From Candidatus Poribacteria bacterium (GTDB taxonomy: Bacteria > Poribacteria > WGA-4E > WGA-3G), in the NCBI GenBank assembly GCA_965205015.1, contig OZ242029.1, forward strand, positions 5,312,001 through 5,376,000: a stretch of DNA of 64,000 nucleotides. Direction: 5' to 3'. The notes under the pieces were generated by a model that was not told where the DNA came from, searched no databases, and worked only from the letters and a program-made list of their open reading frames with translations. Positions within the stretch are counted from its first letter, which is position 1. Every line of letters begins with the position of its first letter. Positions 16,345 through 64,000 of this stretch are shown here, in pieces. Position numbers and translations under genes: made by a program.

Positions 16345-16468
16345 GTTCGGGAGATAAGAATTTACGGATGAAATGAATTGAATATCGCTTGGGAGATGGA
16401 TGGTAGGTGAACGCGTTCGTCGGGCATCTCTCGCAGGATTTCAAGATTATCGCCGAAATAGAGTTTGT

Positions 16469-16996
16469 TCATGGTGAATCACTTTGAAGTGGTGGTAAGT
16501 CCGATTCACTAAAATCAAGCGTGAAAGTCCTGGAATATTCTTTGCCTTGTAAGTCCTCGTAAGTGACATCAATATCAATTGGCACTTGGCTCAAATCGAC
16601 GGATTCAGTTAACCGACTGACTTGATTACGCTCTATTTTCTGTCCAGGGGCAAGGAGTGCAATTCCCTTATTAAGAAATCCAATCTGATTAAGGGGTATG
16701 CCTCCGTGAGGCGTGAAATCAATGGGGACTTCAAACTTGATTTTACGGGCAACTCCTGTACCTACGTTTTCTACACAAAGTGTGGCCACAGTGATTTCAA
16801 AAATGCCTTGATTTAACTCTCTCTCACTTACAAGACCACTGATTACCTTCTCGCGAAGTAGATAGACTATAATTTCAGGTTTGTTGGCAGTATCTACGAG
16901 TTTCCTCGTCAGATAGGCGTACCAACCTGTGATGATCACCAGCACAAAAGTCGAAATTACAGTAAGCGCGCCACTGTTGTCATTCAACCACTCCAT
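16469..16996 (-). CDS. Hypothetical membrane-anchored protein
   Basis: N-terminal TM helix (LTVISTFVLVIITGWYAYLT), ENVG.G.A motif, beta-rich C-terminus; AT-rich. Confidence 0.7.
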   Translation of the reverse strand: MEWLNDNSGALTVISTFVLVIITGWYAYLTRKLVDTANKPEIIVYLLREKVISGLVSERELNQGIFEITVATLCVENVGTGVARKIKFEVPIDFTPHGGIPLNQIGFLNKGIALLAPGQKIERNQVSRLTESVDLSQVPIDIDVTYEDLQGKEYSRTFTLDFSESDLPPLQSDSP

Positions 16997-17002
16997 TATG
17001 CA

Positions 17003-17236
17003 TTAGATCTCCATGGCTATATTCTTCACTTCGCTCCGAATGACAGAATCTGTTTCTCGGTTAACGACGCGAAACTCAATCTGAATCTGACCATTTTCAT
17101 CGGCATAACGGAGGATGTTGGGGTCATTGACGTTAACCTGCATATACTCGTTGACATAACATTCCACAACGATGGGTTCATTCCTGTCGTTTGGATATGT
17201 TATCTTTACATTTTTATGGAATTGTTGTTCGTTCAT
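17003..17236 (-). CDS. Hypothetical protein (77 aa)
   Basis: ORF with AGGT RBS, tightly spaced to the next gene. Confidence 0.55.
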   Translation of the reverse strand: MNEQQFHKNVKITYPNDRNEPIVVECYVNEYMQVNVNDPNILRYADENGQIQIEFRVVNRETDSVIRSEVKNIAMEI

Positions 17237-17248
17237 TTGTTATACCTA

Positions 17249-17344
17249 CTATAGAAGCTTAACAATTATGGCAGCAACGATGCCGGTAACAGTTACAGCT
17301 ATTGTTACAGTCCACTGCAAGCATTTTTCTAATCTGTTTATCAA
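17249..17344 (-). CDS. Putative small hydrophobic peptide or gene 3' fragment ((L)INRLEKCLQWTVTIAVTVTGIVAAIIVKLL)
   Basis: Read manually; single TM-like stretch; stop is followed directly by the RBS of the next gene; start (TTG or ATA) uncertain. Confidence 0.35.
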   Translation of the reverse strand: MINRLEKCLQWTVTIAVTVTGIVAAIIVKLL

Positions 17345-17394
17345 TTCTTCAGCGTCAAAACTCCGTCCTTTAGGTCGGAGATGTAGACGCTGCT

Positions 17395-18402
17395 TTAGGA
17401 GTATCTAAAGTTGAGTTTTCTCAAAACCTGATAGGTATTCGGTTTAGCCGTGAGAATAATCTGTTTGCTGCTGTGAATTTCACTCAGGGTCAAGCATCCT
17501 TTTTGATGTCCTGTGACGCGTAGAAGTCCTTTTTTAACATGCCTCACTAATGTATTCTTCGCAACACCAAGACAGGTCGTGCCTCCATAACGAGGGCGTT
17601 TGCCACCTTTCTGTGGATTCTGTCTGTGGAGTTCACGCCTGCGTATCGGTATTGGCGATATACAGAAGATTGAAATATTGTCCACAATCGGGTTGCCTCC
17701 GACTATCTGATATGATAGGCACCAACTATCGACACAATGTGCCTCAAACGTCTCTGATAGTTTATGCGACGACTTCTTGAGACCTAATCTATCTCGTATC
17801 TCCTTTGTTTCCCACCCTTGAAAGGTTCGTAGGTGCCAACGCTTCTGAACTTCAGCGTAGAACCCCTGCTTACCCACTTCCAAGGGACTAAAGGATTTAT
17901 TCCACTTTTTCGCATGTTCTATCGTCCGTGCTTGAATACCCTCAACACATACATGTGTGATTGGATACAGTTTGGATAACCACTGTAGTATACGCAACTT
18001 CCACGCCCATCTTGCGCGTGTGCCTGCGGGGATACGGTCTTTGTTGGCAAGCCGATTCGTCCGATTCTTTCTATTCGGACACTTACGCGACCGACGACCT
18101 CTCCGCAACTCACGACGCTTTTCTATCTTCTTACCGACTTTGTTGTGTGCATCCGCTTGCACATTCAGATATGTATGGGACTCACTTTTAACCGTAAAAC
18201 CCTCTTTCTTACTGCCAGGGTCTACGCCTACAGCAATCTCTTGCTTGTAATAGCGTTCCCGCACTTCTTTGTTAAGCCTGATACAGAAAATACCATTATT
18301 CCAATAAGGCGTGGCTTCTCCACTTTTAATCAAATGCCTTGCTACGGGGGGAATGGTAGGCATTAGGGGTATATGTTGCCCCATCCAGATCACGGTATCC
18401 AA
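17395..18402 (-). CDS. isrB: IsrB RNA-guided nickase (RRXRR family; PLMP, RuvC, bridge helix, no HNH)
   Basis: PLMPT, RuvC-I GVDPGSK, Arg-rich RRELRRGRRSR, RuvC-II VCVE, RuvC-III AHCVD; about 335 aa with no HNH insert; start uncertain (18402, 18384 or 18363). Confidence 0.85.
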   Translation of the reverse strand: MDTVIWMGQHIPLMPTIPPVARHLIKSGEATPYWNNGIFCIRLNKEVRERYYKQEIAVGVDPGSKKEGFTVKSESHTYLNVQADAHNKVGKKIEKRRELRRGRRSRKCPNRKNRTNRLANKDRIPAGTRARWAWKLRILQWLSKLYPITHVCVEGIQARTIEHAKKWNKSFSPLEVGKQGFYAEVQKRWHLRTFQGWETKEIRDRLGLKKSSHKLSETFEAHCVDSWCLSYQIVGGNPIVDNISIFCISPIPIRRRELHRQNPQKGGKRPRYGGTTCLGVAKNTLVRHVKKGLLRVTGHQKGCLTLSEIHSSKQIILTAKPNTYQVLRKLNFRYS

Positions 18403-18683
18403 GAGGAATCAGACTTGGGGAGCATCCGATACATCGTGTTGGCTACCACGCCAAGATACCATGATATTTTACTGTAGTCGATGGTTTATAGTAAAGTTTA
18501 GAATTAATTAGACACTTTAAAGAGGCGAGGATACAATCCTCGCCAGCGGCGGAGAGGATTGTTTCGCTAAGCAACTGTCTACATATTTTTCGACTTTACT
18601 ATAACTTGTGAAGTGGACGATTGGTATACGCTTTGCACAAGCCTCGTCCTTTAGGACGAGGTCACTGACAATACTCTTTGTTA
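18370..18683 (-). ncRNA. Putative IsrB omegaRNA (5' guide + scaffold), interrupted by a MITE
   Basis: Scaffold starts GTCAGTGACCTCGTCCTAAAGGACGAGGCTTG; later GGCGTGGTAGCC and GGATGCTCCCCAAGTC...GATGGGG blocks resemble omegaRNA scaffolds; boundaries approximate. Confidence 0.7.
18489..18601. mobile_element. 113-bp MITE with terminal inverted repeats and TA target duplication
   Basis: TA[TAGTAAAGT...ACTTTACTA]TA; internal GGCGAGGATACAATCCTCGCC palindrome. Confidence 0.7.
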
Positions 18684-18688
18684 AGGAC

Positions 18689-18718
18689 ATAGTAACATAC
18701 CCTCGCGTGGATTGTCAA
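18689..18718 (-). promoter_or_regulatory. Sigma70-like promoter reading into the omegaRNA
   Basis: Minus strand TTGACA-N18-TACTAT with TG extended -10. Confidence 0.6.
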
Positions 18719-18731
18719 CGAAAAAATTATA

Positions 18732-20708
18732 TCAACCGGGCAACAAACGATACCCGATGCCGGTCATGAGTCCAACAACGATCCAGATACCGCCGATGAA
18801 GCACTCGCCTAATACAATCCCTAACACAAAAGGACGGAGTTTGCGGTAGAGGGTAACGCCCCCGAACTTCAGAACAGTGTATTTGAATAGCCAACCGATG
18901 AAGAATGAACCCCAAAAACAGAAGGACGCATAACTCGTTATCAGGAGGTATCCGATCGGATGCAGTTTCCACCAGAGATAATGATGTCGCATCCAGAGCA
19001 TTCCGAACATCGTGGCACCGCCGAAGATGAACGAACCGAGCCGTTCCAATTCAATGCCGGTTGGATTTTGGAGGATGCTCGTGAGGCGGGTGAACGGGAC
19101 GGTTGTAGAGATCATATAGGTCCAGTGTTGCAAGTTCACTGCACCGTGCGTATAGGCAAGGTCTAAGGACGTATAGTAAGAGACTCCCATCGCCAAAACG
19201 ATTGCGATCCCCATCGCAAGCAGAAACGGTCGCTGCTTGAGACGGAGCGGTTCCGCGAGTTTGAAGTTGTTCATCACGCCCGGCATCAGGATTTCCCGCA
19301 TATCGAACATCAAGACGCGTTCGTATGCGACCAGGGTCCAACTCGGCGCGTTCACACGAGAACTGCCGAACAACGTAATCAGGAATTCACCCGGTAGGAA
19401 GGAGTAGATGATAAACAGCAAGCCACCGTTCGCAACCATCCACGTTCCGACCGTCGTTATGGCGAGGAAAATCCCGAGCATCACGAGTGCCACCCACACA
19501 CTCATCCCTGCCAGCCTACATATCAGGGTCAGTAGCAGGATGCCAACGATTAAGCCACCTACCGCCCAAACGTAAGGTAGCGGTTCGTTGGAATCATCAC
19601 TCACCCGTTTCCCAAAAATGGTAGCGAATGCCCGACCGAAGTGACGTTTGCCGATGAAGAGGATGAATCCGATAAAGACGAGCAGCCCACCCATCTGTTG
19701 ATTCTGGTGGAAGTTCCACTGATTCACTTTCGAGCCTGTCGCGTAGATAAGCACCGTCTCCATCTTTCCGAGCAGGAAAAAGAACCAGAAACTAAACGAG
19801 ATTTCGAGGGTCAGCAGATAGACGATAGCGACGATCGAGGGATAGATAAACAGATGCACCGTGGGCCACCACCCCAGCGCGGAGAGCGGTTTTTCGGTGA
19901 AGAATTGGGCAATCGGGAAATCGAGAGGCGGCCTCGGAAAGGCTGGGAAGTACGAATGTAGGCCTCTCAAGCCGTGCAATATAACCGGCAGCATGAAACC
20001 GAACCACATCAGCCGCGATTTGAAGAACCGATTCAATAAGGCACCCCCTGAAGGGGATTGCAACATCTCCTGTGGCAATTGAACGATCGGAAATGTGAAG
20101 CGTTCGTGTTCTACCCACTGCTTGCGGAGGAGCACTGTCCAGCAGATGGTAACGAAATAAAAAATCAGGACAAACGCACTCCACCCGACAATCGGCTTCA
20201 ACCATGCCCGCCACGGGATCGAATCGCCTTCCGGTAATTGTTCATAAAAATAGAAAACTGCTTTCGGATCTTTTACGATCATCCAGTCCGGAAGGTGCTG
20301 ATGAAAGAGGGTGATCCACTCGTTTTCGGCGGTTGCGAAGTAGACTGGACTGACAGCGAGTGGGACGAGGTATCGCATCAGCCCCGAGGATGGGATACCC
20401 GATGCGACCACCATCATCCCCCAGATAATGAGGAGTTCGCTACCTTGCAATTCGATGCCGGGTTTCAATCTTTTCAGGAGCACATTGACACTCAGGACGA
20501 AGACCAGCATTACGAAGACAACGGCGATCGGCAAGTGGTTTCCGGCAAGGTAGGTGCTGCCGACGTGGAAATCGTTATACGGAGTGGCGAAGCATTGGCA
20601 TATCACCCCACCCATACCGATGAGCACACTCCGTAGGGTGAGTCCAGTGTGAGCAGGATAGGGGGTTTGCGGAAAATTTTGGGGATGAGATGTGGCTGGA
20701 GATGTCAT
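18732..20708 (-). CDS. Large polytopic membrane protein (DUF6785/DUF6784-like, putative transporter)
   Basis: Many TM helices; ATAENEW, LRKQW..ER..FP, WW.LHPIGY, PF.LG...GE. Confidence 0.75.
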   Translation of the reverse strand: MTSPATSHPQNFPQTPYPAHTGLTLRSVLIGMGGVICQCFATPYNDFHVGSTYLAGNHLPIAVVFVMLVFVLSVNVLLKRLKPGIELQGSELLIIWGMMVVASGIPSSGLMRYLVPLAVSPVYFATAENEWITLFHQHLPDWMIVKDPKAVFYFYEQLPEGDSIPWRAWLKPIVGWSAFVLIFYFVTICWTVLLRKQWVEHERFTFPIVQLPQEMLQSPSGGALLNRFFKSRLMWFGFMLPVILHGLRGLHSYFPAFPRPPLDFPIAQFFTEKPLSALGWWPTVHLFIYPSIVAIVYLLTLEISFSFWFFFLLGKMETVLIYATGSKVNQWNFHQNQQMGGLLVFIGFILFIGKRHFGRAFATIFGKRVSDDSNEPLPYVWAVGGLIVGILLLTLICRLAGMSVWVALVMLGIFLAITTVGTWMVANGGLLFIIYSFLPGEFLITLFGSSRVNAPSWTLVAYERVLMFDMREILMPGVMNNFKLAEPLRLKQRPFLLAMGIAIVLAMGVSYYTSLDLAYTHGAVNLQHWTYMISTTVPFTRLTSILQNPTGIELERLGSFIFGGATMFGMLWMRHHYLWWKLHPIGYLLITSYASFCFWGSFFIGWLFKYTVLKFGGVTLYRKLRPFVLGIVLGECFIGGIWIVVGLMTGIGYRLLPG

Positions 20709-53566: not shown

Positions 53567-54073
53567 ATGTCAAACCAAAAAATCTATCAACGTAGCAAAC
53601 TTGCATCCATCCTTCAGCAAGCGAGAGCAGACGGCACCGTTGTTGTCACCACCAACGGTTGTTTTGATGTCCTACATTTGGGGCATCTCCGTTACCTTCA
53701 GGCAGCGCGTCAACTTGGGGATCTGCTCGTAGTAGCAGTTAACAGTGATAGTTCAGTCCGACACCTCAAGGGTGAAAACCGTCCACTCGTTCCTGAAGAG
53801 GAACGCGCGGAGATGCTCGCCGGGTTGGAATGCGTCGATTACGTCGTCATCTTTCCAGAGTTAACACCCATCTCCTTGCTTTCTGAACTCAAACCGAATA
53901 TCCACGTTAAAGGTGGCGACTATCAACTCGAACAACTCATCGAGAGGGAGGTCGTTGAGGCAAATGGTGGTCAGGTGATCGTCGGTTTGAACGTGCCGGG
54001 GAAGTCCACAACCCATCTCATCGAAGTGATATGTGAGCGATATAAAGGCACTGGTGCCGCAGACACGCCGTAG
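53567..54073 (+). CDS. D-glycero-beta-D-manno-heptose 1-phosphate adenylyltransferase (RfaE domain II-like)
   Basis: TNGCFDVLHLGH, NSD.SV..LKG..RP, KGGDY, STT. Confidence 0.9.
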   Translation: MSNQKIYQRSKLASILQQARADGTVVVTTNGCFDVLHLGHLRYLQAARQLGDLLVVAVNSDSSVRHLKGENRPLVPEEERAEMLAGLECVDYVVIFPELTPISLLSELKPNIHVKGGDYQLEQLIEREVVEANGGQVIVGLNVPGKSTTHLIEVICERYKGTGAADTP

Positions 54074-54123
54074 GGCAATTTTAGAATTAATAATGAGAGC
54101 ACTGAGGAGGCAATCATAACACA

Positions 54124-63897: not shown

Positions 63898-64000
63898 CGC
63901 GATTAGATTTGGCTGTGTGAGGTTGGAATTTGGTATTAATCTACAGATATTTTGGCTGTAAAGTCAAAAAGTGTATAAGGCGAGGTCAGCAAACCTCGCC

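Follow-up and report, generated by a model that had tools for sequence, protein, structure and literature searches.

A 113-bp miniature inverted-repeat transposable element (MITE) interrupts the omegaRNA gene of an IsrB-type OMEGA element in the DNA of a sponge-associated Candidatus Poribacteria bacterium. The analyzed stretch, referred to as the window, comprises 64,000 nucleotides (contig OZ242029.1, positions 5,312,001 to 5,376,000), and coordinates given below are window positions unless a locus is named. The MITE was inserted into a TTAA sequence within the omegaRNA gene, with duplication of the central TA, and the OMEGA element that received it occupies positions 17338-18669. The best overall explanation, to which we assign a probability of about 0.8, is that an IS630-type MITE hit, by chance and without an adaptive role, an IsrB element copy that is losing its function. 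The central features are the following:

17338..18669, minus strand: IsrB-carrying mobile element, likely extent, with the left end at the guide/scaffold boundary and the right end approximately 57 nt beyond the stop codon
18366..18669, minus strand: MITE-interrupted IsrB omegaRNA scaffold, a conserved block from GTCAGTG (18669) to the start codon
18489..18601, no strand assigned: MITE, 113 bp, TAGTAAAG...CTTTACTA, without coding capacity
18487..18488, no strand assigned: left copy of the TA target duplication (T 18486 completes the left half of TTAA)
18602..18603, no strand assigned: right copy of the TA target duplication (A 18604 completes the right half of TTAA)

Letter by letter, the insertion reads T (18486), TA (18487-18488), the element TAG...CTA (18489-18601), TA (18602-18603) and A (18604). 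A first-pass annotation, made from the sequence of the window, had described a perfect 12-bp inverted repeat here, and it is present as described: TTATAGTAAAGT (18486-18497) faces ACTTTACTATAA (18593-18604). The 12-mer occurs twice in the window, compared with 0.13 expected occurrences, and 1 of 100 shuffles also gave two. The inverted-repeat arms reach 32 nt at 78% complementarity, and the terminal inverted repeats of the MITE are imperfect and approximately 30 nt long. The same annotation correctly recognized the 113-bp element, its TA duplication and the internal GGCGAGG..CCTCGCC hairpin (GGCGAGGAT/ATCCTCGCC; 18524-18544). Across diverged subfamilies, this inner hairpin with the bases that follow it (GGCGAGGATACAATCCTCGCCAGCGG; 18524-18550 in the window, copies in L081-L110) is the best-kept part of the element, and the sub-terminal repeat regions are less conserved. 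A CRISPR repeat (Rfam CRISPR-DR31) was considered for the hairpin and rejected, the match being a single copy with 23.6 bits against a gathering threshold of 35 (E 0.04); it was the only match, below threshold, in the Rfam scan of 17000-19200, which returned no omegaRNA family.

The evidence for insertion comes from empty sites. A genome scan yielded 292 IsrB-encoding stretches, from which 80 homologous loci (L001-L080) were kept, all from metagenome-assembled genomes of Poribacteria and often several per genome. When the minus strand of 18760-18364 was compared with these loci by blastn, many gave two high-scoring segment pairs, corresponding to window positions 18670-18602 and 18488-18366, which adjoin in the homologs with a 2-nt TA overlap. 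All 11 aligned homologs are uninterrupted and read ...CACAAGT-TA-AACC..., with a single TTAA where the window has TTA-[element]-TAA. It had been proposed that removal of the insert restores the scaffold, and this holds: in silico excision of the element plus one TA gives ...CACAAGTTAAACCATCGAC..., as in 11/11 aligned homologs, and after excision one segment pair spans the junction in 54 of the 80 loci. An omegaRNA profile built from 30 homologous RNAs (nhmmer) gave a single near-full-length match of 181-200 nt in 76 of the 80 loci; the other four comprise two partial matches (one cut by the contig start) and two loci without a match. The omegaRNA of the window was the only one split by the profile, model positions 1-73 falling at 18669-18597 and 67-189 at 18488-18366. 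Two other profile matches, L205 2013-2239 and L040 990-765 (minus strand), span 226-227 nt for 188 model positions, i.e. approximately 37 nt extra; only about 460 nt separate the L205 copy from the next conserved gene, and this copy is possibly a standalone omegaRNA that has acquired a small insert.

The origin of the insert was traced in the genomes behind five homologous loci, which are related genomes and not that of the organism of the window (genomes are designated G002, G003 and so on, loci as above). Matches at E <= 0.01 were found in 5/5 of them (15, 43, 46, 3 and 42 matches), including 10 near-full-length copies in G002, at 90-97% identity, and one in G005, at 93%. The 27-nt MITE end occurs 37 times in G002, compared with 0 times for a reversed control. 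In the 13 copies that were compared, the element always starts ...TA-TAGTAAA and finishes TTTACTA-TA..., with slight variation; 12 of these 13 other copies have TA on both sides and 10 have TTA...TAA, and the family thus appears to prefer TTAA. Within the window this copy is the only one, in contrast to the many known from G002: a family profile built from 14 copies of other genomes matches the window only at 18486-18603 (E 2.8e-37). The two "related sequences" that the first-pass annotation had listed elsewhere in the window are chance matches. The one at 54071-54092 gave a 12-nt blastn-short match (54080-54091, E 0.34) and no profile match at E <= 100, and the other, at 63957-64000, gave 13 nt at 92% (63958-63970, E 21) and a profile match at 63958-63977 with E 30.

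A likely parent of the family was found in G002. It is a 914-bp insertion sequence (IS) with ends TTATAGTAAAG..., located at L112 1456-2369 and at 11 more places in the genome; 12 DDE_3 matches score identically, and the five further copies that were aligned are 99.9-100% identical to the reference copy. Its first gene, orfA, belongs to PF01710 (HTH_Tnp_IS630, E 2.5e-24) and the second, orfB, to PF13358 (DDE_3, E 1.3e-32). The transposase is split into frames of 118 and 166 codons, whose overlap lies at nine consecutive A residues (about 2003-2012, coding strand) and suggests programmed frameshifting. TTA...TAA flanks were found in 6/6 copies. The terminal 11 nt of the MITE and of this IS are identical, and by hand count 23/29 positions agree at the left end and 25/32 at the right. 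A copy of a MITE subfamily (L088) has its first 29 nt identical to the left end of the IS. By these termini, the MITE classifies as an internal-deletion-type derivative of an IS630-family insertion sequence.

This assignment agrees with what is described for the family, whose members as a rule insert into TA and duplicate it (Feng and Colloms, 2007, PMC2170065). Like ISY100 and other IS630/Tc1-mariner elements and their MITE derivatives, the element has terminal inverted repeats and a duplicated TA (PMC2170065), and it is short and non-coding, is multi-copy in related genomes and shares its termini with a related autonomous element encoding HTH_Tnp_IS630 and DDE_3 domains. It differs from them in the preference for TTAA (10/13 MITE and 6/6 IS copies) and in its candidate partner, which is only 914 bp long, has a split transposase and comes from a related genome; the inner repeat sequence of the partner also differs from that of the window MITE, as the above counts indicate. 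The window itself encodes no IS630-type transposase detectable by tblastn. Matches restricted to the terminal inverted repeat at L102 and L110 (G005) were rejected as partners, since no transposase adjoins them and they look like other short elements sharing the end; other IS630-type matches in G003 (L113-L121) were rejected because their ends agree over 10-11 nt at most. The claim that an IS630/Tc1-mariner-type non-autonomous element sits in the omegaRNA is thus borne out by empty sites, by copies elsewhere and by an IS630-family element with matching ends, and both the MITE copies and the transposase that the first-pass annotation proposed to look for exist in related genomes.

Seven G002 copies (L081, L086, L091, L096, L100, L104 and L108) are 94-97% identical to the MITE of the window. 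Between the two organisms, the neighboring host genes show an identity of only 87-88%, which suggests recent activity from a conserved master copy or movement between species. In sequencing run X1, a MITE unitig of 118 nt has a depth of 896, approximately 14-fold that of the flanks (about 65), which is only a hint of copy number.

To place the insertion within the RNA, a secondary structure was drawn by eye on an alignment (A2) of 30 insert-free homologs and the pairs were then counted. Paired bases fill 90.9% of cells and 30 of the 51 pairs show compensatory change on both sides; 0/500 shuffles were as good on any measure, and slid controls reached 35-43% paired. Helices were assigned to stem 1 (S1) and stem-loops 1 and 2 (SL1, SL2) of the omegaRNA of DtIsrB (Desulfovirgula thermocuniculi) by topology, not from a structure. 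The parts adjacent to the insertion are:

18663..18669, minus strand: ascending strand of S1 (GUCAGUG), helix 1, A2 columns 1-7 with 80-86; 4/7 pairs changed on both sides
18642..18661, minus strand: SL1 (CCUCGUCC-UAAA-GGACGAGG), helix 2; 7/8 pairs compensatory, formed in predicted folds
18605..18641, minus strand: SL2 (CUUGUG...CACAAG plus an inner helix), helices 3-5
18477..18483, minus strand: descending strand of S1 (CAUCGAC), with one A-C mismatch to the ascending strand

The RNA thus consists, in order, of the guide, a 7-bp stem, a hairpin with a UAAA loop, a composite pseudoknot hairpin, a 6-nt linker and the return strand of the first stem. Pairing between the loop UACCA of SL2 and the loop UGGUA of SL5 constitutes the adaptor pseudoknot (89.7% paired), in which the pair at columns 49-119 divides into 13 A-U and 13 G-C; a second pseudoknot, to the 3' region, is also supported by covariation. 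The pairings CTTGTG/CACAAG and GTCAGTG/CATCGAC, read earlier from the window sequence, are covariation-supported helices, the second with the single mismatch listed above, whose C recurs in 1/30 homologs (L005). The MITE is located in the linker UUAAAC, which follows SL2 (18641-18605) and precedes the descending S1 strand (18483-18477), i.e. in the guide-adaptor region, at the end of S1 away from the guide.

In DtIsrB, S1, SL1 and SL2 constitute the guide adaptor (Hirano et al., 2022, PMC9581776). The Poribacteria omegaRNA resembles that of DtIsrB (PDB 8DMB), by topology mapping, in the order guide, S1, SL1, SL2 and descending S1, in the SL2-SL5 and second pseudoknots, and in a 3' end that adjoins the start codon. 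It differs in length, the Poribacteria scaffold having approximately 190 nt compared with 262 nt, and hence fewer peripheral stem-loops; moreover, the copy in the window is interrupted by 115 nt (the 113-nt element and a TA), and its gene is truncated at the 5' end. A sigma-70-like promoter match (18689..18718, minus strand; TTGACA, 18 nt, TACTAT, with TG before it; 10/12, a consensus match only) lies in flanking DNA just upstream of the expected guide start.

The gene that accompanies this RNA carries lesions of its own, which the first-pass annotation missed. The relevant features are:

17395..18363, minus strand: present IsrB open reading frame, with 322 codons counted from ATG 18363 and a stop codon, encoding an RRXRR/PLMP-RuvC protein
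18361..18368, minus strand: junction of a deletion of about 55 nt, at which the omegaRNA 3' end (...ACCCC) is fused to TA-ATG-CCT (M-P-T)
17938..17940, minus strand: codon 142 (counted from M at 18363; coordinates by arithmetic), Gly in place of Asp

The open frame on the minus strand spans 17395-18402. The product matches Pfam RRXRR (PF14239, E 7.8e-28) and is homologous to DtIsrB (PDB 8dmb, E 2.4e-33), and the NCBIfam IscB model matches it partially, over positions 8-156 of 314, the N-terminal half. These RRXRR and RuvC matches without an HNH domain identify an IsrB-type OMEGA nickase (nicking is predicted). A protein search recovered 4125 relatives among 7390 candidates; the closest are 92-93% identical, and the named ones belong to Candidatus Poribacteria.

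The approximately 55 nt missing from the window correspond to a ribosome-binding site of the GGAG type together with the native ATG and 13 codons (consensus MFVPVKSKxGxxL), all present in 7/7 aligned homologs and lost in none of the 76 homologous loci. Between omegaRNA profile position 189 and the MPT codon lie 53-100 nt in 76/76 loci and 2 nt in the window; in three loci (L026, L033 and L060) about 100 nt, instead of about 58 nt, separate the omegaRNA end from the MPT codons. The fused upstream frame reads ...IPLMPT, which re-creates a PLMP-like motif. In DtIsrB, the PLMP domain contacts the terminal hairpin containing the Shine-Dalgarno sequence (PMC9581776). The deletion is shared by the assemblies of runs X1 and X3, whose contigs are colinear through 18340-18425. 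The second lesion, D142G, adjoins the RuvC-II glutamate, where the motif reads E-D, and the residue is Asp in 120/120 homologs. Another substitution, W167G, is also rare (W in 117/121).

The insertion is, in addition, an isolated event. Among the 77 full-length omegaRNAs profiled (76 loci and the window), that of the window is the sole interrupted one, and a search of 175 Poribacteria genomes revealed no second case of a MITE in an omegaRNA. When the left junction was searched there with a degenerate pattern and 0 mismatches, five matches were obtained in four genomes, none of them in an omegaRNA; a left-junction 17-mer with <= 2 mismatches matched at about the level of a reversed control, and three near-matches among those listed (L153-L155) had no omegaRNA. 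The right-junction pattern gave 88 matches with 1-2 mismatches and none exact, with an omegaRNA in 0/25 of those fetched, the other 63 being assessed from the matched strings only. In a metagenome collection, the left-junction 17-mer had 48 exact matches, 0 with an omegaRNA. The further loci L081-L155, including all 30 MITE-copy loci fetched, contained an omegaRNA in 0/75 cases. By eye, TTAA is present in this linker in most of the 30 aligned homologs; it is widely available yet rarely hit, which argues against a hot spot. These counts, together with the two lesions in the same IsrB copy, give no support to the suggestion that the insert marks a natural insertion-tolerant site or a general route of silencing.

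Since the deletion is unique among 76 loci, D142G occurs in 1/121 sequences and both affect the same copy, we read the locus as decaying. The most likely course of events is as follows. First, an IsrB element would have inserted at this locus. Afterwards, three hits would have accumulated, with no order implied: the MITE in the guide-adaptor linker, the 55-nt deletion at the RNA-gene boundary and D142G. The MITE would have been mobilized in trans by an IS630-type transposase (with its helix-turn-helix and DDE parts) by cut-and-paste into TA. On this evidence, the insertion is best seen as an ordinary hit in a copy that is decaying, and its biological significance is modest.

Several observations speak against this interpretation. 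The IsrB frame is still open for 322 codons and departs from the consensus at 2 of the 142 columns that are >= 95% conserved, which is the median of 121 sequences. The canonical RuvC positions D48, E141, H209 and D212, the presumed catalytic four, are all kept and align with invariant columns. On the RNA side, the omegaRNA flanks are well conserved and the pseudoknot partners intact, and in relatives deletions in the guide adaptor are tolerated (DtIsrB delta-SL1, PMC9581776; OrufIscB, PMC13180657). With an open frame, retained RuvC residues, a conserved RNA and a distal insertion site, the locus could be recently hit or partly active. The omegaRNA could also serve an intact IsrB paralog in trans, and a MITE-free paralogous omegaRNA is present in sample X1.

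The most serious alternative, which we nevertheless consider unlikely, is that the insert is tolerated or exapted: its hairpin would project as a fourth helix, the ribonucleoprotein would still assemble with this IsrB or with an intact paralog, and the linker would be a natural insertion-tolerant site. Thermodynamic folds, computed without pseudoknots or protein, are favorable to it. The 307-nt RNA with the insert has a predicted energy of -99.4 kcal/mol (z -6.3) with S1, SL1, SL2 and the 3' helices all formed and the insert as a separate long hairpin, very stable also by itself (-39.7 kcal/mol, z -7.1). The RNA excised in silico (-58.1 kcal/mol) has identical native helices, which the interrupted RNA keeps in both the minimum-free-energy and the centroid folds. 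In the transcript, the insert is thus predicted to fold on itself as a long imperfect hairpin, converting the S1/SL1/SL2 three-way junction into a four-way one, with all native helices able to form. The earlier proposal that the insert loops out and leaves the scaffold foldable is supported to this extent, as a prediction.

The location of the insert is also in keeping with tolerance. In DtIsrB, SL1 can be deleted with nicking kept (PMC9581776), and OrufIscB stays active when GAAA takes the place of 42 nt in its guide-adaptor hairpin (Kannan et al., 2025, PMC13180657), so that distal parts of the guide adaptor are dispensable in both. The insert is, moreover, fixed in two samples that differ by 8/525 nt in the right flank, next to a reading frame that is open and ordinarily conserved. 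The engineered changes affect the region that is hit here, the guide-distal end of the repeat/anti-repeat-like stem, in which DtIsrB and OrufIscB have tolerated deletion (PMC9581776, PMC13180657), but they are deletions or small designed inserts that work, whereas here a transposon has added about 115 nt beside SL2. A helix of about 50 bp at the base of SL2 may clash, as SL2 of DtIsrB touches the guide-target heteroduplex and DtIsrB requires the SL2-SL5 pseudoknot (PMC9581776), and linker nucleotides are consumed by the 12-bp terminal stem. The loss of the ribosome-binding site, start codon and 13 codons, D142G and the single interrupted RNA among 77, with none found in 175 genomes, also oppose it. 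Foldability in silico and the peripheral location leave a small chance that the RNA still works. The specific model of a guide that is still working, with the hairpin as a fourth helix and used by IsrB, possibly a paralog in trans, seems to us doubtful, and about as unlikely as tolerance in general.

Much less probable is regulatory capture, in which a promoter or terminator of the MITE would rewire expression, for example by driving the IsrB mRNA once its own signals were lost, or by splitting the omegaRNA into a 5' piece with the guide and a 3' piece with the scaffold. At each end of the MITE, a weak promoter-like match (9/12) extends across the boundary on the strand of the omegaRNA (18612-18585 and 18495-18466), and the linker is the topological point of the division into CRISPR RNA (crRNA) and trans-activating crRNA (tracrRNA) discussed for Cas9 origins (PMC9581776). 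These are, however, weak consensus matches in a region with six such matches in all, compared with 1.1 expected; a terminator scan of the insert detected no terminator-like site, and the arrangement occurs a single time.

That the insert is a native, lineage-specific expansion helix and not a transposon is hardly credible: in the predicted folds a clean hairpin does emerge from the junction, and omegaRNAs are known to gain and lose peripheral stem-loops (PMC9581776), but the segment is absent from all 76 full-length homologous omegaRNAs matched by the profile, a duplicated TA of a pre-existing TTAA flanks it, copies of 90-97% identity occupy many unrelated sites of other genomes (none of the 75 further loci having an omegaRNA), and its ends are those of an IS630-family element.

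An assembly artefact, i.e. a chimera in which a repeat placed the MITE in the omegaRNA, can be given equally little weight. The MITE does occur in these samples as a repeat of high depth (the X1 unitig described above), and repeats cause misjoins. Logan contigs of four runs, which drop rare variants, were placed on 17300-19100. Contigs of X1, possibly the source sample, match 18396-18513 and 18576-19100 without any difference (depths of 68.5 and 63.6 next to flanks of about 65), and those of X3, from another study, cover 18374-18513 with 0 and 18576-19100 with 8 differences (depths 88 and 75). Both junctions are thus carried, at flank-like depths of 64-88, by contigs from two studies, which argues against an artefact, and the TA duplication with exact restoration of the homologous sequence is the trace of true transposition. 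No contig joint skipping the insert was found in the four runs, within the limit that such contigs drop rare variants. A 312-nt contig in X1 and X4 follows 18374-18488 with 13 differences and then continues into a sequence like the empty SL2 strand of a paralog, which indicates that insert-free paralogous omegaRNAs coexist in these samples.

The preferred reading, a chance insertion into a decaying copy, provides a clean and well-bounded case of one selfish element inside the guide RNA of another. In having one mobile element within another, it resembles nested transposons and intragenic bacterial MITEs (Delihas, 2008, PMC2229807), but in the present case the element landed in a structured guide RNA, that of an RNA-guided nuclease. 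A literature search, outside which most subscription journals lay, returned no report of a MITE within an omegaRNA. The analysis also yields a previously undescribed IS630-derived MITE family of Poribacteria with its likely parent IS, and a covariation-supported secondary structure for a clade of compact (about 190-nt) IsrB omegaRNAs that is abundant in these sponge symbionts. Should the interrupted RNA be a working guide, it would demonstrate in nature that the linker joining SL2 to the descending S1 strand accepts about 115 extra nt, and it would provide a plausible intermediate on the way from a one-piece omegaRNA to an interrupted and later a split one. If functional, it would also offer a site ready for grafting aptamers onto IsrB guides. 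Aptamers have been placed in the tetraloop of the Cas9 single guide RNA, at a comparable region of the guide RNA.

In the IsrB element, the omegaRNA gene lies immediately upstream of the gene for the nickase. Sequence shared with other IsrB loci begins at 18669 and, in the 3/80 loci that match there, extends as far as 17336-17338. On one side the element is neighbored by a DUF6785/DUF6784 gene, and on the other by two unannotated frames followed by a gene with a Lar_N domain. Genomes G003 and G002, whose flanking genes show the 87-88% identity to those of the window mentioned above, have no IsrB or omegaRNA at the orthologous site. In G003, the stretch 16354-18729 has no counterpart and the equivalents of 18730 and 16353 are approximately 35 nt apart, and in G002 the site contains other sequence, MITE copies included. 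The element therefore arrived in the lineage of the window after its divergence from these two species and was later damaged.

The two unannotated frames, of 175 and 77 codons (16469-17236, minus strand), have no Pfam match and no counterpart at the orthologous site in G003. Elements that resemble the MITE and have its ends were observed downstream of orthologous or similar DUF6785/DUF6784 genes in G005 and G002 (L102 1405-1532; L204 594-664 and 1831-1925), and the spacer downstream of this gene seems to collect insertions.

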